Source of the DNA: Eledone cirrhosa
Taxonomy: Eukaryota
Assembly: GCA_964016885.1 (NCBI GenBank)
Contig: OZ024755.1
Coordinates: 15,066,001 to 15,130,000 of the forward strand
Length of the DNA: 64,000 bases
Direction of reading: 5' to 3'
In this document: positions 1,892-64,000 of the stretch, one piece after another
Numbering within the stretch: the stretch's first letter is position 1
Layout of the letters: every line of letters starts with the position of its first letter
The notes under the pieces: model-generated
What the model saw: only the letters and a program-made list of their open reading frames with translations
Databases searched by the model: none
Told to the model about the DNA's origin: nothing
Position numbers and translations under genes: made by a program

Positions 1892-3989
1892 ATATGTAAC
1901 CATAACAGAAGACATATCAGGAAATATTAATATATTTGTGTGAGTCCTATTATGAACATTTCAACGAAAGTGGAAGGCATTGCATTTTTTCTTTGAACAC
2001 AGAGAAAAAAACTGATAGATTCCCTATACAGATTTTACAACTAATTAGTAGCCTAGTAATCTTATCCTTCTGTGTAATGTATAGTTTTATTCTCAAAGGT
2101 TGGGCGGGTGTAGTCAACAGAGATATCTCTTCGGCAGTTCCAAGAAACATCTGATTTGATTGGAACGTACAATGTTCCAATTCCTGAAGAGGCATCCGAT
2201 TCCATTTGCCCTTGCACTGATATCCATCTGTTGCTAATGCCTACTAAATAAGAGTTTCGAAATGACATCATATAAGATGCACCAGTGCGCTCTGTGGTGA
2301 CAAATTCTCTGGATCATGATCTCAATGTGCTGCTAAAGCTAACTAATGCTTACTAAATATGTGTCATGATAGATGATGAGCTGGTACACTCTGATTTTTA
2401 TTCACCTGAAGGGATTACTGGAGGATAAAACTTAACTGAGTTGCTCTCCCCGTTCATATGATACGTGTTGCACACAGATAGACATTTAGAAAGATAGATT
2501 GAGAGATATATTGGTAAACATGTAGTCGGTAGTTAAACAGATAATTAATAGCTATATAGATACACAGATCGACAGAGAGAGAAACAGACAAATAGACGAA
2601 TTGATAAATAGAGAGTTAGGCAGTTAGATATTTAAAGGCTGTAGTCGGAAGGTAGATAGAAATATAGGTTGTTATAGAAAGCTACTGCCTGGCTACACAC
2701 TGCATTCTCAACACTGAGAGAGAGAGAAAGGGATAACATTAGGGAGGTAGATATCAATCTACTATTACTCAGCCGAAGATGGCATGAAATGGTTATCATG
2801 TGATGCTTGGTTTTCTTTATATACATTTTTTTCTGTTTGTTTTGTCAAACGAAATAATGTTGTACTTCGGTAGATAACGTCAGCTCACTCCAATGGGGTA
2901 TTAAACACATCTCTCAAACAAAACCTTGCCGCACATTCATTTTATGAATTGAATGAGTATGTTACAAAAGTGGGTTTTATGTTGAAATAAATTACGCATT
3001 TTACACAGGGGTATTTGATAGAAAAGCTTCACATCATCTCTTCCTCTCTGATCTCTTCTTTACCTCGAAGTTATGACATGTTCGTTGGTTTCTTTGTACT
3101 TGTAGCTATTATTACCCAGTTTGACAATGTTATTCAGTGGAGATCAAACATGTAAATAAGAGATAGCATTAAAAAAATGAAGAAACTTTGGCATATAGTC
3201 CGAGTGAATGGGTCAAAGTTTGAACATTAAGACATCAGTAACCGAAGTTTTCTGATATATTTTGAATATTTGTATCATCATCATCATCATTATTATTATA
3301 GATAAAGTAATTGCTAGACTACCTTTAAATCCATGCATCAACAGAAATATTGATAGAGCGATCGATATAACCAGAAAAGAAAGAAATTGAAGTAAATGAA
3401 CAAACGGTGTGTGTATATGTATAAACGTGTATAGGTTTGAATATATACGTTTGTATGTATAAAATATACGAAAGAGAATTTCAGACAAAATGATTGCACC
3501 GTTTCCAATATTCTATGAAATATTCCGAAATAAATGCATTCAGTTGTTGAATAGTTTTGCTAAATGCAAATGAAAATTCAAATTTTTTGTCCGCATCGAA
3601 TCTAGTTGAACACGTGAATTAATGGTGGAAATCGGACATATTCACAAGTATGCAAATATGTTCAGTTTATCGATACGTTTGCTTCAGCCCTTAATCCCTC
3701 TCTCAAATATACGCCCTTAGGTATGTATTCTATGCAGCAACATTCATTTCATTCTAATGCAGGAATTTTCCACTTCGGATCTCGATGTAAGCCGTCTATA
3801 TTGGAGAGATATATCGTGAGGCAATTTCAGATGCAAACTAATATGTGACGAGCTTTGAATTGACATCATCTTAATGGAAAACTGCTGCACGAAGACAGAA
3901 GACAAAACTGCTAGTTAGATATATAAATAGGTTTCGATAAATAGAGACGCATACTGATAAGCAAGCACGCAGTGATCTATGTATGTATT

Positions 3990-3991
3990 AA

Positions 3992-4042
<51 letters not shown>

Positions 4043-4105
4043 ATATATATATATATATATAGATATATATATATATACACACACACACATATATCTATAT
4101 ATATA

Positions 4106-4148
<43 letters not shown>

Positions 4149-4190
4149 ATATATGTATATATATATATGTGTGTGTGTGTATATATATAT

Positions 4191-4228
<38 letters not shown>

Positions 4229-4335
4229 TTATATATATATACATATGTGTGTATATATATATATACATATGTATATATATATATGTATATATATATATTT
4301 ATACATATGTGTGTATATATATATATACATATGTG

Positions 4336-4367
<32 letters not shown>

Positions 4368-4849
4368 TATGTGTGTATATATATATATATATACATATGT
4401 GTGTATATATATATATACATATGTATATATATATATATATATATACATATGTGTGTATATATATATATATATACATATGTGTGTATATATATATATATAT
4501 ACATATGTATATATATATACATATGCATATATGTATATATATATATATACACATGCATATATATATGTATATATATATATACATATGCATATATATATAT
4601 GTATATATATATGTATATATAAATATGTATATATATGTATATATATATATATATGTATATATAAATATATGTATATATATGTGTATGTATATATATATGT
4701 ATGGATATATATATATATATTTATATATATATATGTATGTGTATATATATATGTATGGATATGTATATATATAGATAATAATACATATATATATATGTAC
4801 ATATGTATGTATATAAATATATATATATATATAAATATACATATGTATG

Positions 4850-4881
<32 letters not shown>

Positions 4882-4943
4882 ATATACATAAATATATATG
4901 TATATATATGTGTACATATGTATATGTACATATGTATATATGA

Positions 4944-4978
<35 letters not shown>

Positions 4979-5044
4979 TATAGGTATGCATAAATATATA
5001 TATGTGTCTATATATATATGTATGTATATAAATATGTGTATATG

Positions 5045-5098
<54 letters not shown>

Positions 5099-5200
5099 CA
5101 TGTATGTATATATATACATATATATATATATATATGCTAACACACAGTTACACATACATATGTCTACATATGCATACACACTCACACACACATATATATA
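3990..5200. repeat. Compound (TA)n/(TATG)/(TG) microsatellite array
   Basis: About 1.2 kb made almost entirely of TA with TG/CA interruptions. Confidence 0.95.
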
Positions 5201-5608
5201 TGAATCTATTCGTGTAGTTTTACTCTTTTGTACATCTATATACACAAAATAAGATATATGTATGAATTTTATTTACATCCGTGTATACTATGGCGAATAT
5301 ATGCGTGCATATGTAGCAGCCTTGTATGTGATAATGTTAGAGGAGAGAATACGTTACATAATAATACATCTCTCATACAGTATCTATCCCACACACTTAC
5401 ATACATTCTAATACATGATTACATACACACATACATGTGTACAAATATAGAACCATGGAAATATATAAACGCTACCGACAATGTTCGCATTACAACCTTT
5501 GTCTTACGGTTTCTGACTCTCTTAATTATTTTTTCTAATCATAGAATACATTCGCAGACATACACATGCATACAAACAAAACATATGCGCCTGCAAACAC
5601 TATGTATT

Positions 5609-5649
<41 letters not shown>

Positions 5650-5724
5650 TTGTATGTATGTATACATGTTTGCTTGCATGTATCTATATATGTTTGTATG
5701 CAAGTATGTAAAGATTCTTGCATG

Positions 5725-5772
<48 letters not shown>

Positions 5773-5977
5773 GTCTGCGTTTGTGTGTAAACAATTAGTG
5801 CCGGGAAGAGTCATTTTGGGCTTTTACTAAGACACAAAATGACTTAACTATTGAAATAAATGATTTCTATGAAATCAAAGAATTTCTTTTTAGTTTAAAA
5901 ATGGTATGTTCACCTAGAATAGATTTTAGATTCAAATTAGCGATAAATTTAGTTGTCAGACAAATACCTCTCCTCTA

Positions 5978-6036
<59 letters not shown>

Positions 6037-6151
6037 ATATATATATATATTTATATGAGCAAAGGGATATTAAATTTTTGGGGGTTGGTAATTCAACAAA
6101 TATATATATTTATAACTGATTCGAAGCAATGGGCAAGTTTTCTGGGGTATA

Positions 6152-6418
6152 ATATCAATGATATTAATAAATGGAAATTATATTTATTCTATTATACATA
6201 TTTCAAGTGTAGCAGAACCTTGGTACGCTCTCATAAGATAAAATACATAGTTTGTATCTAGGGAAAACTTGAACCGTTAAGATCTCGTTCCTGGGTATGT
6301 CAATATTTATAAAACAAACTTTGTATTTTATCTGATGAGAGCGTACCAAGGTTTTGGTATATAATAGAATAAATATCGTTTTATAAATATTGTTTCCATT
6401 TATTAATATCATTGATAT
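6152..6418. mobile_element. Fold-back element with degenerate hammerhead motifs (related to 61170-61497)
   Basis: Arms about 6152-6255 and 6314-6418 are reverse complements; minus arm reads TATTTTAT-CTTATGA-stemII-GAA-ATATGTAT-A-ATAGAATA; plus arm keeps CTGATGA but lacks GAAA; abuts (TA)n. Confidence 0.7.
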
Positions 6419-6437
6419 ATATATATATATATATATT

Positions 6438-6510
6438 GGGAAAAGTAAGACCCCGGCGGCAGAGCTCAAGCCGTTTCGATGGCCATTTCTGATGTCCAGA
6501 AATAGCCATC
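6438..6510 (+). repeat. Dispersed TA-anchored repeat family A, fragment
   Basis: GACCCCGGCGGCAGAGCTCAAGCCGTTTCGA resembles 56522-56552; starts right after (TA)n. Confidence 0.7.
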
Positions 6511-6789
6511 TATTTCACTGTCAAATCTAGCCCAAAGTTGATGTTATGTACCGCTTGTGCTTTTTCTTTATGGATATATATTGAACGACAAACGACCCAG
6601 GGTTTATGCCTATAGTAATATTAAAGGATCAGTATAAATAACACTTGAGAAAATTGGGTTCATTACTCCTAGATACGGTAAAGATGTGGACAGATTCACT
6701 TCTATCTACGTTTTACAGTCTCCAGTGTCATTTTATACAAGCTTCTCAACTGTTTTAATGATAGCCTATTGTTATTATTAATTCAAGAG

Positions 6790-7250
6790 CGTTTGATTGA
6801 CAGTATTGATAGAGCGTCGGACAACATGCCTTGAGGCATATTGCTATGGGTCATAACGCTTTGAGTTCATTCGTCACCGAGGTTTGCTTTGCATTTCATC
6901 TTATCGGGGTCCATATAATAAAGTACCAGTAAACACACTGAGGTCAATTTTATAGACTTTCACTGAGGTCAATGTTATCTCTTCAAATGCCTGGCGTTGT
7001 GTTAAAAGTAGAAACAATTATTATTGTGAATTTACGGCCGTTGATTTGCGGTAATGACAAAGCGGCGGACACATGTTTTTCGATATTTCCTTAAGACCAT
7101 ACGTCCTGTGTCCAAATATGTCCAAGAATTTATTTGCCATTCATCCCTCCGGTATCTTTAAACTAGTGTACAAGTTAAATAATGGGGTCCATATAATAAA
7201 CGTTTCCCTTCGCTAAAAGTGCTGGCCTTACTGCCAAAGTTAGAAAGAAT
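6790..7250 (+). mobile_element. Two tandem degenerate SINE copies
   Basis: TTTCATC...GGGGTC...AAAGTACCAG and GCTGGCCTT...AAAGTTAGAAA motifs shared with 42507-42693. Confidence 0.6.
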
Positions 7251-7557
7251 TTTTTATAGTTAATCTACATTGTAAATTAACTACGGGTATGTACAGTATA
7301 TGTGTGCATGTGTGTGTGTGTGTGTGTGTGTTTAGATTAACATGATAGAAAAATATTAGAAGCAATCGCGACTCGTTGTATATTGGCAAAACCCCTATTA
7401 TTCTATCTTTTGTACCGTTTTTATATACATATTCGATCACCAATATATACGATATATAAGATATAATGCATCATGGTGGAGTTACCCTACATATTCATTG
7501 ACAGGTTTTATAATAAATATCGTTTATTAAATTTTTTTCATTACCGTCGCTAGGTAT

Positions 7558-7604
<47 letters not shown>

Positions 7605-7760
7605 CATATATATATATTTCATATATATATATTTCATATATAAAGGGACAAGAAAATACATCACGATTAAAGTCTGAGCTGTTTTCTTTTATACTAATAT
7701 TCGCACGCTTTATGGAATCATTATATCGGTCTTCTTGCAGACCAATCATGAGATTCCATG

Positions 7761-7803
<43 letters not shown>

Positions 7804-8578
7804 CATAAAACAACACTTTTCCTCGGAGGAGGGTGCTATTAAAATTATTCCGCTCCAATCGACTGGAAGTTGTAAGCAAGTACGGAAGGGGAAGAAAAAT
7901 GATTCAGGATTGAGCAGTGAATTAAACTGGAAACTACCGAGAAGTTTTGTTGTTTTTACAAAACTACTCTTAGGAGAGTGAATAAACAGAGCACTGAAAA
8001 TCACTGATAAAATGCCATTTATTTTTCTAGTATCTTGTTATTTTTTCCTGTGGTATTTCATATATCAGTACGGCGCGAACTGCTGTTCCGGTTAATGGGG
8101 GATTGCCATGATAGACAGATTTGTGAGAGACTCTACTGCCATAATAAAAATAGTTCGTATCTCATCTACATGTATCATATATGCACAGGAGGTATTATAA
8201 TGAGGCAATTTATATACGATGCCCCAGTCATTCGCCCACAAAACTTATTGATAAATGAATGACTGAGACTGAAGTTTTCTCATGTTTATATTTATTCATC
8301 TAGAACTATATAATAATTTTCCTCGTCTAAAGTTTCCGGCAGGCTAGCAATTTTTTGAAACTCAACTATGGTTAATATGGGGCTTGAAAGAAATTACAAC
8401 TTAATATGTATGTGTGTAATAATGCAATATATATATATATATATATACGCACATACGGACATGTACACACATAAATACATTACGTCCGGTGTGTATGTCC
8501 ATATGTGTGTGTTCATTACGCATACATAATCAAAGTATAAGGAGGATGTGACAGCAAATCAGTTAGATACACACAAGA

Positions 8579-8657
<79 letters not shown>

Positions 8658-9156
8658 GTGCGTGTGCCTGTATGTGAAACAGAGAAGATTGTGTGTATTT
8701 AATTTGTTCATTGTCTGGTACATTTTAAACCCTGTGGTTCTCGGGCTTTGTGTATTAGTTTGGTAGAAAACCCGTTATTCTTTTGTATATGCTTATTTGG
8801 CAAATTTCGTTATCTTCTGTTTCTTTTGTAGATGATAATCGCAAAGCTTAAAGGATAATGTATATGCTTCTTTATAAATAATATATTGTAACTCTTATAG
8901 GGAGGGATTATTTCAAACTCAGACATAGAAACTCGGGACATAAACACTGGGAACAATACTAAATAATGAAGATAGTCTCTATATAATGAAATCACCCATA
9001 ATAACTGCTCATATACTGAACCGATACCATTGCCTTACAAAATAGACGTACACAATTGACTAAACATGCTCAAGTATATAATCGAAAATGTTTCCAATAT
9101 ACATGGTTTAAAACAGATGCAGGAAAGTTTCTAAGTATCTGAAATCTGTATATATA

Positions 9157-38439: not shown

Positions 38440-39772
38440 TTAGCGAGAAAGTAATAGTCTCGGTTTCAAGTTACTTTCATAGTGAGAAAAGTTAGCATTC
38501 AGTTTGTGTTTGCAGTATAACGATCGTTCGATTCTGTCATTTAGTAAATTGTTTTTAGATTTCAAGATATAAAAAAGTTCAAGGTTGCATAATCTGCAAT
38601 ATGCACTAGCGCTGGATAATTTATCCCATTTTAGGTTGAACTGCTGGTTGTGTTCGCGGAGTTGCCAAGTCTTATTAGCGAGTGTAGTTACATAGCGGTG
38701 TTCAGGATGTTTAATCGAAAATCGATGACGATACCAGCATGATTTAAAGGAGGTAGTAGTAGACCCGACGTAATACTATTTCTGGTCGTTTCATTCGACA
38801 GTTCATTGATAAACAATGTTGGGCTCCAGGCATTTATTCTGCAATGGGCATCTCTCGGGTAGGTGATAATTACAGTTTTTGTTATGGGTAAATATCTGTT
38901 CCATGGATAGGTTGGGATAACAGTACAGGTGGGTTTCGTAATACTCGTTTCACATTTGGTGGTTGGGAAGTTGATATTACGTTATGCCCATATGTGTCTA
39001 AAATATTTTATTTTGTAGTGTTGTTTAATAATAGCTTTAAGTTAAGTTTTTTTTATGTGTGCTTCTAGGTTTGATGCAGTGGAGTATGATAGCTTAATAG
39101 CCTTAGAGTTTAAAATGTTACTGTATTTATGGGAATTAGGGAAATGCTTGTTAATTAACTTAAAGAATAAAAGAGATAGTTTTGTACTAATCGAAGCATT
39201 AAAAATGGGATTATACCAGACATACTTCCTGAAACGTAATTTGCTTGAGTTTGGTGATGATTTTTTTATTATTAGTATGTCTGGTGGTACTGCATGTGTG
39301 TGTTTGTATGCCTGTGCCCCGGTTACATATTCTTCGATTCTGTGCGTTGCTATGTGTGCTCTGGTGATTCTTATCAATGTATTCTATTTTATCCCAGTGG
39401 TCGGCATTTCCCAGTGCGCTATTATAGTATTCTGCATGTTCGCTGAAAATCTGAGAGTTAGACGTTAGGCGAGAAATTCTAAGATAAATACTACGAGGAA
39501 CCGATTTAATCATGGAAAGTGGGTGAGTCGAGTTGTAATTAATATAGGTAAGGTTCTCGTTTTTCTTGTGGAAGGGTCGTATCAATGCTGTGTTCAAATT
39601 AAGAGTTACGTCTAGAAAATTAGCAGTTATCAAATTTGATAATAGTTTTCCTGGCCTCTAGAATCATATTAATTTCGCCCTCCGTTAGATCTGAATTGAT
39701 CTTAGCAAACGATAGGGCCTTACGTAAAGTACTGGGTGAGATCGAAGAGTAGTATTCATCTATATCGAATTG
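38440..39772 (-). mobile_element. Penelope-like retroelement (Naiad-like), 5'-truncated, internally deleted pseudo-ORF
   Basis: [19 protein letters not shown]...STHP, RKYVWYNP...KHFP...LSYS, CN(Y)x5CPLQNKC, IVYQ...YYVGST...FK...H (GIY-YIG), CRLCNLE, CKH; stops and frameshifts; 5' end abuts (TA)n. Confidence 0.9.
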
Positions 39773-39783
39773 TATATATATAT

Positions 39784-39880
<97 letters not shown>

Positions 39881-40150
39881 GGCATATATTTGCGATCTAT
39901 AAATCTATGTACGGAATTAAGTTGTAAATCATTAAAATACTAATAATTGTTGTCGTTAATTATTGATTTGTAAAAGAAATTATTACTTCAAATTTGTTTT
40001 CAAATTTATTATTGCCTAGTCACCCCTCTGACAGTTAAATTAAACTGTATCCTTTGCTTGATTGAGCAATTAAAATCTATCACCGCTGCCAAATTAAGAC
40101 ACAGATCTTATTGCAATACATATACACAAATCAAAAAGTCCTTAAATAAC

Positions 40151-43569: not shown

Positions 43570-45129
43570 TGAATAACGATGGTAACGACGATGACGATGA
43601 CGTCAATGACGTTGATAATGTTGCTGAGGATGATGGTGATGATGATAATGAATATGGTGCTGATGATGACGAGGTGGGGGTGGCAGGACTATAGAAACTC
43701 AGTATATTGAAGAAATTAGAGCAGATGATATGATGACAAAAATGTCGATGAGACTGATATAGATGGTGATGTGAATAATGATGATGACAGTGATAATAGT
43801 GCAGCTGTTAATGTCGATGATGATGAGGATGATGATAGAAGAGAGGAGGGAGAGAGGAGAGAGGAGGCGTCAGTATGAAATGAAGGAAATAGAGCAAAGA
43901 CGACAATACCGACGACACGTTGACAATAATGAAGTGGATGATGACCGTGGTTGTGATGATGATGACGACGACGACGATGATGACGATCGCGACGGTGATG
44001 ATGATGATGACGACGATGATGATGAAGATGACGATGATGAAGATGATGACGATGAAGTTGATGACGATGATGATGATGACGATGACGATGATGAAGATGA
44101 CGATGATGAAGATGATGACGATGAAGTTGATGACGATGATGATGTTGAGGATGATGGTGATGATGATGATGTTGGAGGTAGTGGTGGTGGTGGTGGTGGT
44201 GACGATGGGTGTCATAATGATTATGACAATGATGATGATGATGATGTTGGAGCTAATGGTGGTGGTGGTGGTGGTAGTGTTGGTGACGATGGCTGTCATA
44301 ATGATTATGACAATGATGATGATGTTGGAGCTAATGGTGGTGGTGGTGGTGGTAGTGTTGGTGACGATGGCTGTCATAATGATTATGACAATGATGATGA
44401 TGATGTTGGAGGTAATGGTGGTGGTGGTGCTGGTGGTGACGATGGTTGTTATAATGATTATGACAATGATGATGATGATGTTGGAGGTAATGTTAGTGGT
44501 GGTGTTGGTAATGTTGGTGACGATGGCTATTATAATGATTATGACAATGATGATGATGATGTTGGAGGTAATGGTGGTGGTGGTGATGGTGGGGTTAGTC
44601 TTAGTGTAGGTTGTGCGATGGTTGTCATAATGATTATGAAACTGATGATGATGATGTCGGTGGTGGTAGTAGAACTGCTGGTGGTGTTGTAGAAGACAAA
44701 TATTATGATAATTATTATGAGTAACAAGGATGGCAAATATGATGATGATGTATGTATATATAAATCTCTAATTACAGTAATGCTGCTACTGATAATTCAA
44801 CCAGCACCACCTTCAACAACAACAACAGCAGCAGCAGCAGCAGCAACAACAACAACCTAGGGAGTAACGTGTCACATTATATCAGCCCCTTTCTATTGCT
44901 GCTGCCTTTTTATAGCTGTTTTAACTGCTGCAACTGCTACTGGAGCTGTTTCATTTGGATTACTGTTCCTGCAAGGGTTAATGAAACAGTAGTAGTAGTA
45001 GTAGTAGTGATGATAGCGATATTATTAGTGGTTATAGTAGAAGGAAGAGTAGTATTGGTGCTAGTGGTGGTTATAGTGAGAGTAATAGTTGTAGTAGTGA
45101 TATTATTATTGCTGTTATTATTATTATAT

Positions 45130-47470: not shown

Positions 47471-47966
47471 ATTCAAATGATGAGCTTGGCTGCACATGCA
47501 AATGCTTGTGTGTTACGCTGATGAAACGGGAAAATTCTGGGAGGAAATGAATGGGGAGAGGAATGGGTGGAGTATAACGAGAGTGTTGTAAGATATGAAT
47601 TCAGAAAGCAGGCTAAAGAACTGGCAATGAGATAAATATATAACATCATGTAAACACAAGAGACAGTGTGAAGTGGTGGTGAATAATAGATGAAAGGAAG
47701 GGAGATGAAATGATAAAGTAATACAAAAAAAGAGAGGGTAGTTACGTTACGAGAAGTGATCGAGACGTGAACTTGAAGAATACAACGAGATCTAAGGGAT
47801 AAAGAAGAATACGAGACATGTAATCGGAGGGAGGTGTCGAAATTAAGATATTTATGAAGAAGGGGTGAGCATGGTATCAAGGGATTGGTCGATCGGTGAA
47901 TCAATAGGTGTACTGATATATATATATATATATATAAAATCAAAAGATAGTTAAAAGAGTTCCAAC

Positions 47967-48037
47967 TATTTTATTATGCGCATTTCAAAAACAAATATCA
48001 TCATGGGATGATATTTGCGTTCTCATCAGATAAAATA
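47967..48037 (-). ncRNA. Type I hammerhead ribozyme motif (solo copy of the 61 kb family)
   Basis: TATTTTAT-CTGATGA-GAACGCAAATATCATC ccat GATGATATTTGTTTTT-GAA-ATGCGCAT-A-ATAAAATA; intact core; tail runs into (TA)n near 47935. Confidence 0.8.
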
Positions 48038-49428
48038 TCTGATATATGCATATGTGTACATACACACATATATATATATGTGTGTATGTGTGCGTATGTA
48101 TAAACAAGCTTTGAGCAATGTTGGTTAACAATACCAACCTTAGCCAAATAATGTCAGAACCTGCGTTGTATACATGCACATCGTTACCAATTGTGGATGT
48201 ATCTAGAAAGGTAATTATTTACTAGTATTTAAATTTAGATTTTCTCGAAAGATAATTCCTATCGGTTGAACAAAAGAAAATGTCTCCGTTTCACTATGTG
48301 TTTTCAAATAAGTTTCGAAATAACAGATATGTGACTAACGATTTTAGATTTATTGTCTCGTTCAGAGATTTACAACGAAACGCATGTAGGTTATCATATG
48401 TAAAATATTCATACAGCAATTAATATAGCCAGAAAAACGTATTGGCTTAAGTAATAAGAAACTCCCAGGAGAGATGGATATCAAAATGTCTTCAGAGAAG
48501 AAACCCCCGCCAAGAAAGTGTTTCGGCACTTAACTCCTTAGAGTTATATATATGAGGAGCTAAAATAATTACATAAAGTACAAGTATTCTCGCTATTAAT
48601 ATTTGGACAGCTTTGATTACACTAAAACTGACTTAGTGATAATTAAACTGTCAGATCAAATATATTCGCTCGAAGTTGTAAACTTAAAATTCTTGGGCGG
48701 TGAAGTTTGGTTATGTGTCCATTTAGAGCAGCCAACGCCACTGCGAGAATTACCAAGTCTCCGATAACTTTCCCATATCCTCCCAACAATCTCTTTCTCA
48801 AACAATTCATAAGCAATAAAAAGAAAGAAAAAAAGACATGAAAAAAAAAACTAGAGCGAATTAAATGTATATTTTTCTTAGTTCGAATCGATTAATGTAA
48901 ATATTTATTATAATATGTTTATAGGTTCACATTCAAGCCTGGAAAGTACAATCTATTCCTATGGCAAACACTATATTTCACGATGTTCCAGTACATTAAA
49001 CTGAAAACAAAGAGAATCTATTGTTAGAAGTAGGGCGTTCACACAGCGATGGACTGACGTCTCCTCAATAGGAAAACCTGTACTCTCATTCGCTCAACGC
49101 CAATTCAAGCGAAATATATTCTGGTCTTATAAGCGTGAGATTAAGTTCGACTGTAATACTTGAGAGATCGTGAATTTTATAATCTATAATTCGAAGATAA
49201 AATTATCACTTTCACGGTCCTCGTTCACAAATTGTTACATACACACGCAGTCACACAAAGAAATGCACGCAGATACAAAAATACATAGACACATATATGG
49301 ACACTCATATACACACACACACACACACACACACATATGTATGCATGTACATACATGCACACACACACATATATATTCATGTACATACATACACACACAC
49401 ACAGACATATATATGCATGTACATACAT

Positions 49429-60361: not shown

Positions 60362-60598
60362 ATTATTATAAATGTAAGCTATCGCCGTATTTTGACTAAA
60401 GAGATTAAAGAAATTATTTAGCATGATAGTGGGTTTAAGAACTCTCGGAGAAATGGAAAAAAGATGAGTATTGACGTACATGTAAGTCAATACTCATCTT
60501 TTTCAATTTCTATGAGGGTTCTTAACCTCACTATCAGGCTAAATAATTTCTTTAATTTCTTTAGTCAAGATACGGCGATAGCTTACGTTTCTAATAAT
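60362..60598. repeat. Fold-back with zero-loop centre
   Basis: Arms about 118 bp around TACA|TGTA at 60480/60481; abuts (TA)n. Confidence 0.9.
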
Positions 60599-61137: not shown

Positions 61138-61209
61138 CGTATATATTGAATATATATATATATATATATATAATATAAGATCAAAAGATGGTTAAAGGAG
61201 TTCCATATA

Positions 61210-61276
61210 TTTTATTATGCGCATTTCAAAAACAAACATCATCAAACAATAATATTTGTGGTTTCATCAGATAAAA
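61210..61276 (-). ncRNA. Type I hammerhead ribozyme motif
   Basis: Reverse complement of 61391-61457 with one change in stem II. Confidence 0.75.
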
Positions 61277-61390
61277 CAGGAGAATATGATATGAAGGCTA
61301 AAAAACACTTGTTGATAGTGCAGTTTTAAATCAACATATAAAACTGCACTATCAACAAGTGTTTTTTAGCCTTCATATCATGTTCTCCTG

Positions 61391-61457
61391 TTTTATCTGA
61401 TGAAAACACAAATATTATTGTTTGATGATGTTTGTTTTTGAAATGCGCATAATAAAA
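61391..61457 (+). ncRNA. Type I hammerhead ribozyme motif
   Basis: TTTTAT-CTGATGA(61397-61403)-16 bp stem II-GAA-ATGCGCAT-A(61451)-ATAAAA. Confidence 0.8.
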
Positions 61458-61582
61458 TATATGGAACTCCTTTAACCATCTTTTGATCTTATATTATGCA
61501 TACTCCAGTCCCACAAACTGTAGAGTGCTTCTTATCCGATATCTGCATTGCTTTATTGTACTACAATAAAACTCACCTCCTA

Positions 61583-62655
<1,073 letters not shown>

Positions 62656-63309: not shown

Positions 63310-63756
63310 AACGGATAGATAGATAGATAAGTAGATAATCGTAAATGCTGGTAAAATGCATACAAATAGGATACAGTGTTATAGAGAAAACTATGCTATA
63401 TAGATTTGTTTGTACCAAACACTTACTAGAAGAAATAAATACAAAAAAACTCTTCATCGACGCATACAATAGACACCTTCATATATATGGGTGTGTTTGT
63501 GTGTGTGTGTTTAAAAAAGTATCTTTAAAAACCATGTAGTAAGACTGAACTTTAAGGGGATCTCTTTTTTACCAGCAAATAACAATACAACACACACAAA
63601 CACAGACGTATATATATATATATATATATATATACTATATATATATATATATATATACATATATACATATATATATATATATTATAGCTGTAGGAATATA
63701 TCCCGCTTGAGACGGAAAAACTAACACAGGAGACATATATAACTAAGAAAATGTAA

Positions 63757-63863
63757 TAAGAAACCAGGTGGACCATAACGCACCAGAGTACTCGATACTT
63801 AGGGTAGTAGAGTGGGTAATAGAAAAAGAGTCAGGACCGAGCTCAGCCGTCGGGGTCCTGACT
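63757..63863 (+). repeat. Repeat family A copy with a short inversion
   Basis: Matches 56449-56525; AGTCAGGACC...GGTCCTGACT terminal inversion. Confidence 0.85.
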
Positions 63864-64000
63864 GTGTGTGTTTTGTAGCGTATTATATTTAAAGTAAATT
63901 GCAGATTCTGATAATATTGATAGATATATATTTATATATGTTAGTTATTGGGACAAGATCAAAAAGCCGGTGTTTCGATTCCTGAAGCAGACGGCGTGTG

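Follow-up and report, generated by a model that had tools for sequence, protein, structure and literature searches.

The literature already describes hammerheads in the pseudo-LTRs of Penelope-like elements (PLEs) and their truncated, dispersed copies, along with (TA)n targets, tails and twins in inverted orientation. A dimer model has been put forward for PLE hammerheads (PMC4209133, PMC6765202). The core-closing G10.1-C11.1 pair is highly conserved (PMC4209133), and AUA is a natural cleavage triplet (PMC1636495). In vitro work on a PLE of the anole found internal initiation on uncleaved linear RNA, with a tail that corresponds to the stretch between two start sites (PMC11167929). Hammerhead mutants of the same element had no effect on insertion in vitro (PMC11167929), which speaks against a key role of the ribozyme. 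Here, we analyzed a 64-kb stretch of DNA (the window) and followed one of its hammerhead motifs through the whole genome (3.0 Gb, 1,796 contigs). With high probability, positions 47934–48037 of the window represent a 5′-truncated pseudo-LTR from the 3′ end of a Penelope-like retrotransposon of the Hydra clade. The fragment abuts (TA)n and contains a complete type-I hammerhead, for which cleavage is predicted in the dimer only, so that the solo copy is likely inert.

A descriptor search of the 64-kb window identified a type-I hammerhead on the minus strand at 47967–48037, with every element present and correctly ordered (Table 1), comprising a CUGAnGA and GAAA core, a UH cleavage site and three helices with an open stem I. 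The only other full matches were the two arms of an element at 61 kb (core at 61270, minus strand, and 61397, plus strand), while one weak match at 43660 (stems I, II and III of 5, 2 and 3 bp) lay inside a simple-repeat tract. Folding of the 103-nt stretch gave z = −2.98. Stem II has a predicted energy of −12.9 kcal/mol, compared to −8.4 and −8.1 kcal/mol in the two 61-kb arms. As a monomer, the ribozyme would have a helix III of only 2 bp, whereas stem III scored −10.5 kcal/mol as a self-duplex and +4.7 kcal/mol as a hairpin (ViennaRNA, with the stem III duplex alone being scored). A short palindromic helix III that favors intermolecular pairing is a feature of dimer-type hammerheads, and the predicted energies are in line with the dimer model for PLEs. 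Given these energetics and that model, the solo 48-kb copy, which has neither a coding region nor a tandem partner, is probably inert. We also observed that the minus-strand sequence after the cut (47945–47970) can form a 10-bp hairpin, which competes in the predicted fold with three stem I pairs at the outer end.

Table 1. Features of the 48-kb hammerhead copy and its sister copies (window positions).
Feature	Position	Strand	Basis
Hammerhead stem I, 5′ strand, 8 bp	48030..48037	-	Descriptor search
Catalytic core CUGAUGA	48023..48029	-	Descriptor search
Stem II, 36 nt, subfamily-A type: 3 bp, C-U mismatch, 12 bp, loop CCAU	47987..48022	-	
Core GAA	47984..47986	-	Descriptor search
Palindromic stem III AUGCGCAU	47976..47983	-	Predicted pairing with a second copy
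Predicted cleavage nucleotide A, AUA triplet	47975	-	Place within motif
Hammerhead stem I, 3′ strand	47967..47974	-	Descriptor search
Rest of element end, to 'short' terminus ~45 nt past cleavage site	47934..47966	-	Match to the L061 element 3′ end (97.1% identical across 104 nt)
(AT)10 tract, element 3′ junction	47916..47935		Sequence
Left copy, possible 9-bp target-site duplication	47913..47921	+	Low complexity
Right copy, possible 9-bp target-site duplication	48039..48047	+	Low complexity
Sister copy, subfamily B, short arm of head-to-head pair	61169..61343	-	
Sister copy, subfamily B, long arm with ~85-nt tail	61356..61585	+	

Searching the whole window against Rfam at the gathering threshold returned no matches. 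At E ≤ 10, the region 47850–48150 gave 57 weak matches with no hammerhead among them; these were mostly microRNA models placed on the adjoining TA/TG palindrome. The long stem II is the likely cause of the absent hammerhead match. The core is also closed in an unusual way: the typical, though not universal, G10.1-C11.1 pair is replaced by G-U in the 48-kb copy and, among 202 family copies (described below), by G-U in 56 and A-U in 145, while a related subfamily has G-C at this place. Judging from sequence, a G-U or A-U closing pair may reduce activity.

With its short end, the 48-kb copy corresponds to one arm of a twin, and its truncation point coincides with the outer stem I edge (48037), where homology to the element ends. 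Less than 100 nt upstream of the cut were kept in 8 of 98 position-sampled copies. At its other end, the element runs into (AT)10, bearing out the statement of an earlier note on this DNA that the tail reaches (TA)n. The 9-bp direct repeat at the junction may be a target duplication; it is equally readable as an 8-nt fold-back, with 48036–48043 being an inverted repeat of 48025–48032. In contigs from four of the six sequencing runs, covering organisms A, B and C, the repeat was present in all three organisms and no joint corresponding to an empty site was found. A host function for this copy, for example the cutting of read-through RNA by pairing with the same-strand left arm of the 61-kb element 13 kb away, would fit the intact motif, the 5′ break exactly at the stem I edge and the palindromic stem III common to both copies. 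However, the 48-kb copy is 96–98% identical to the top genomic copies, so its intactness needs no selection, and no host gene was recognized by eye among the ORFs of the window. We therefore regard host use as scarcely credible.

Other repeats in the window deserve mention. A near-perfect inverted repeat with arms of ∼100 nt lies between TA tracts at 60375–60580, without a recognized hammerhead. Another short repeat, at 63750–63870, abuts (TA)n, is often palindromic and recurs beside family copies (L013, L056, L057, L060), where it may represent the terminus of some other PLE family. On the minus strand at 38440–39904, we observed a decayed remnant of a second Hydra-type PLE, with reverse transcriptase (RT) and endonuclease pieces that are 34% identical to the protein P0001 and a TA tract interrupting it. 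No hammerhead was found downstream of this remnant.

Following long family copies upstream led to the parent element, which the earlier note had not identified. At locus L061, a broken frame encoding RT and a GIY-YIG endonuclease is followed by a 3′ UTR of ∼1.3 kb, which terminates in the same hammerhead motif. The translation contains DKT, YRDD, a CxCx5C linker and GIY-YIG with CxxC and CxH, and CCHH is absent. The order of RT followed by GIY-YIG endonuclease, as in EN+ PLEs, is evident from the motifs in L061–L063 and from the alignment with P0001, an intact relative of 726 aa that aligned over RT and endonuclease at 37–43%. A first protein search, with an N-terminal RT piece, returned nothing at E ≤ 1e-10 among longer proteins, a second gave 11 unnamed relatives, and Pfam had no match in four element fragments or in four intact relatives. 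The combination of DKT, CxCx5C linker, CxxC and CxH without CCHH in the translations is that of the Hydra clade, and the position of the Hydra RWK motif reads RLRWI in L216 and L086 and RLGWI in L061 and L215. A (TA)n preference, likewise a Hydra trait, was seen in the TA-rich DNA that follows 184 of 192 short or long ends. The DKT, linker and endonuclease motifs, with the reference proteins compared by eye, point to membership of the Hydra clade, although the element, at ∼3.5 kb, exceeds the length stated for Hydra (<3 kb). Endonuclease position and linker motif excluded Naiad, Neptune and Nematis. As a separate observation, fragments of another type of PLE lie beside family copies at L065:2206-3186, L036 and L037; their linker reads CxxxxCxxC and is Neptune-like when judged by the motif in the literature.

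Pieced together from these loci, the full element measures ∼3.5 kb and consists of a leader of 211 nt between the cleavage site and the start codon (in the loci with an upstream hammerhead), a frame with RT and C-terminal GIY-YIG, and a long 3′ UTR that ends in the hammerhead. Among 30 loci chosen by the 5′ end of their ORF, 13 had a same-strand hammerhead upstream of the reading frame, and in 5 of 13 loci fetched at 7 kb, hammerheads were present at both ends, 3.0–4.4 kb apart. The longest reading frame in 13 loci was 475 aa, and no intact one was found among them. Pseudo-LTRs with a hammerhead, partial tandems, inverted 5′-truncated partners and a tail at one end, which together make up the PLE architecture, were all present.

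Globally, a strict family pattern matched the genome 18,998 times (reversed control: 0), and relaxing it to include sister families gave 43,155 matches. Approximately 22,800 further hammerheads have stem I and the core in common with the family, while their stems II are shorter and unrelated; their stem III variants (for example in L155–L184) include AUAUGUAU, AUAUAUAU and AUACGUAU. A subfamily closed by G-C was linked to a reading frame in L121. For the short-stem sister families, a reading frame match was present in only 1 of 30 loci, and on the wrong side.

Among 98 position-sampled copies, 41 were truncated 120–139 nt ahead of the cleavage site. This strong hot spot coincides with an AT-rich, CATATG-like spot (for example 61330–61356). 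With many short copies, this hot spot and an opposite-strand partner within 270 nt in 42 of the 98, the family could be taken for an independent non-autonomous hammerhead repeat, such as a non-LTR retrozyme or a SINE-like element, rather than for fragments of a coding element. We consider this very improbable: both subfamilies have long coding copies, 41 of the 98 copies extend at least 240 nt upstream, and head-to-tail arrays of short units were not noticed in the loci read. The head-to-tail short-unit tandem that defines non-LTR retrozymes is likewise missing at the 48-kb place, which holds a single copy and no array. A purely non-autonomous subfamily B was ruled out separately, as B loci contain RT and endonuclease.

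Of 201 copies with enough flank, 108 ended ∼45 nt and 84 ∼130 nt past the cleavage site, whereas 3 ran on and 6 ended elsewhere. The two types of end are combined in twins: 52 of 55 head-to-head twins <400 nt apart had one short and one long arm, an arrangement that also applies to the element at 61 kb. If the anole PLE is taken as a guide, the endonuclease of the element would nick AT-rich DNA, and RT would start at one of two internal sites on RNA that is uncleaved through the hammerhead junction. Early termination would then leave fragments such as the 48-kb copy, for which RT would have begun at the +45 site and halted after ∼105 nt at the stem I edge. In full elements, two same-direction hammerheads would pair via their palindromic stems III and excise a unit-length RNA.

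Alternatively, hammerhead cleavage and re-ligation would yield a circular RNA, with RT copying round the circle and also producing ends downstream of the cleavage site, a route proposed in PMC4209133. L061, L191 and L212 start at the +45 point after (TA)n, and L061 and L227 (the same place as L191) also end at +45, one unit long, as expected for copying round a circle. The same ends can, however, be explained by a tandem-derived transcript, and for the anole PLE, initiation in vitro was internal on uncleaved linear RNA and no reads ended at the cleavage site (PMC11167929). A circular route thus appears rather unlikely to us, if worth keeping in mind. Initiation at two internal sites of a linear RNA, the reading we prefer, is matched by the short and long ends and by the twin arms, which correspond to the two-start-site tail of the anole element (PMC11167929). 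Inverted arrangements also exist at a larger scale: pairs whose arms reach from one to several kb, with hammerheads at both outer ends, were observed for example at G000:C1 1138278 and 1142658, in L003 and in L008. RNA running through such pairs would make long double-stranded RNA.

The earlier note had assigned the 48-kb copy to the same family as the 61-kb element, and this held up; the core and stem III are identical to those of the 61-kb arms. Its description of stem II was also accurate: the loop is CCAU at 48 kb and GUUU at 61 kb, and all five changed pairs (two C-G/U-G, two G-U/A-U and one U-A/U-G) retain pairing. It did not mention an A>C change in the left 61-kb arm that breaks one stem II pair, the C-U mismatch at the fourth position of stem II, or the core-closing pair, which is G-U here and A-U at 61 kb instead of G-C. 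From the stem II changes, the note had concluded that the window itself provides evidence that the RNA fold matters. A conserved hammerhead fold is indeed supported, yet this claim was too strong. All five changes are one-sided transitions, with none of 25 pairs changed on both sides, and since 17–18 of the 30 possible stem II transitions keep pairing regardless, five out of five gives p ∼0.06–0.08 under a transitions-only null (0.004–0.006 with the flank spectrum). Furthermore, the five differences are markers of two subfamilies (20 of 63 sampled subfamily-A copies have a stem II identical to that of the 48-kb copy) and therefore inform on the source elements, not on the 48-kb copy.

We therefore turned to the family, using 202 copies with a 36-nt stem II (from 261 unique matches at 136 loci; sister families and length variants excluded). 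Of these, 98 were a position-ordered sample of contig C1 for which an exact core was required, and most of the remaining ones were chosen by likeness to the two window copies. All seven inherited variant sites in stem II kept pairing, being swaps between Watson-Crick and G-U pairs, compared to 8 of 36 rare variants (Fisher's p = 0.0002; transitions only, 0.022). The outcome that the earlier note had named as contradicting its view, stem II substitutions that are random with respect to pairing in a larger alignment, was thus not what these copies showed. This difference between inherited and rare variants makes selection on the fold in the source elements likely, as far as sequences can tell. 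Under this explanation, the pairing-preserving differences would have arisen by selection on source elements and then been inherited by the 48-kb copy.

Mutation bias is the main competing explanation, given that transitions dominate and that A-to-I editing of an RNA duplex would turn A-U into G-U in the DNA copies. Consistent with such a bias, all seven inherited changes are one-sided transitions, five of them A/G, a comparison with three outgroup copies suggests A>G for no fewer than three positions (5, 8 and 11), and the transitions-only null gives p = 0.02–0.03. Conversely, of the 44 inherited flank variants, 12 of which fall at the truncation hot spot and were set aside, 13 of the remaining 32 are transversions, as opposed to 0 of 7 in the stem, and seven of seven sites without a pair break has p = 0.0005–0.0007 under this flank spectrum. 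Position 1 went from G-C (outgroup) to G-U to A-U, which is impossible by editing, and sister families with unrelated stem II sequences hold their basal pairs via two-sided changes. Editing or transition bias could account for part of the pattern; as the explanation of the whole, we judge it improbable, and selection on the source elements remains our preferred reading.

No two-sided stem II change was found within the family (202 copies); such changes occur between sister families only. In representatives of 10 clusters of at least two copies each, the basal three pairs take A-U, G-C, G-U and U-A states. All but one of the 10 representatives have standard pairs there, and every one of them has C-C or C-U at the fourth position. 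In stem III, the four variable central bases were self-complementary in 94 of 100 among the matches listed (hand tally, wider pattern), with GCGC, AUGU, AUAU, ACGU and GUGC as the states seen among them. This self-complementarity includes an inner pair that is impossible for a monomer. Between the subfamilies, identity was 87–90% in the hammerhead, 68–74% in the upstream 3′ UTR and 76–84% in the reading frame. Part of the hammerhead conservation may nevertheless belong to the terminus as a whole, because both sides of the hammerhead, including the adjoining 100 nt, are about equally conserved (83–85% upstream and 84–95% over 37 nt downstream).

By itself, the 48-kb copy is of little importance, being an ordinary case and one of many thousands. 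As a family, these hammerheads bear on what the ribozyme does for PLEs, given that one in vitro study found it to be dispensable for insertion, and the inherited and rare variants are sequence evidence that selection keeps the fold and, in stem III, the dimer register. We found no paper on this hammerhead family in the literature searched (Repbase and Dfam were outside the scope), and the words 'hammerhead' and 'ribozyme' do not occur in the main text of an octopus repeat annotation (PMC13282606). The sequences thus suggest a new family of a known kind of element, and a very large set of PLE hammerheads that is uncatalogued in that literature. The conserved stem II mismatch and the short/long rule of the twins are the parts that deserve specialist attention, although the mismatch may already be described by Lunse et al. 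for dimeric PLE hammerheads. A possible reading, which we offer tentatively, is that of a distinct structural subtype, in which about nine stem II families of unrelated sequence place a near-invariant C-C or C-U mismatch directly above three basal pairs, a closing G-C is dispensable and the center of stem III covaries in a dimer-only register. The mismatch might then make a tertiary contact or allow the protein of the element to switch the ribozyme on, and the short and long arms of the twins would reflect priming at two different internal RNA sites, with both strands of the target nicked and used. If so, the 43,000 copies would be a natural test set for the unsolved insertion mechanism of PLEs.

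How does the family compare with known systems? Non-LTR retrozymes (bioRxiv 10.64898/2026.07.22.740005) similarly combine a type-I hammerhead with a short non-coding repeat related to PLE pseudo-LTRs, but form head-to-tail tandem arrays, whereas we found a single truncated end of a coding element. The Hydra clade, including Hydra-1_Obim (Craig et al. 2021, PMC8557442), agrees with the family in C-terminal GIY-YIG, DKT, the CxCx5C linker, CxxC, CxH and the lack of CCHH. It is also alike in its (TA)n targets, in a type-I hammerhead near the 3′ end that often cuts after A, and in inverted 5′-truncated partners and a tail at one end. In contrast, stem II has 15 bp here and ∼3–7 bp in the Hydra hammerheads listed there, the tail is ∼85 nt instead of 30–40, and RWK reads RWI or GWI. 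The octopus member Hydra-1_Obim has another hammerhead and measures 2,507 bp, compared to ∼3.5 kb here, and is thus a different family. In the supplement of the same paper, four of five family motif strings were absent and the fifth occurred once, in an unrelated coding sequence.

The metazoan PLE hammerheads of Cervera and de la Pena (2014, PMC4209133) are also of type I, with a long helix II and a palindromic helix III, for which action as a dimer has been proposed, and are mostly dispersed single copies from truncated PLEs, with some opposite-strand pairs 100–700 bp apart. Unlike them, the present family lacks G10.1-C11.1 and the extra base between positions 9 and 10.1, has an 8-nt palindrome and, beyond the three basal pairs of stem II, a mismatch conserved as C-C or C-U, and numbers 19,000–43,000 copies instead of 2,000–9,000. 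The Poseidon PLE of Anolis carolinensis, PAc (Frangieh et al. 2024, PMC11167929), belongs to a different clade, and its hammerhead overlaps the ORF start, whereas the start codon follows 211 nt after the cut here. Nevertheless, both have AT-rich targets and two fixed ends downstream of the hammerhead with the tail between them, the ends being ∼85 nt apart in the present family.
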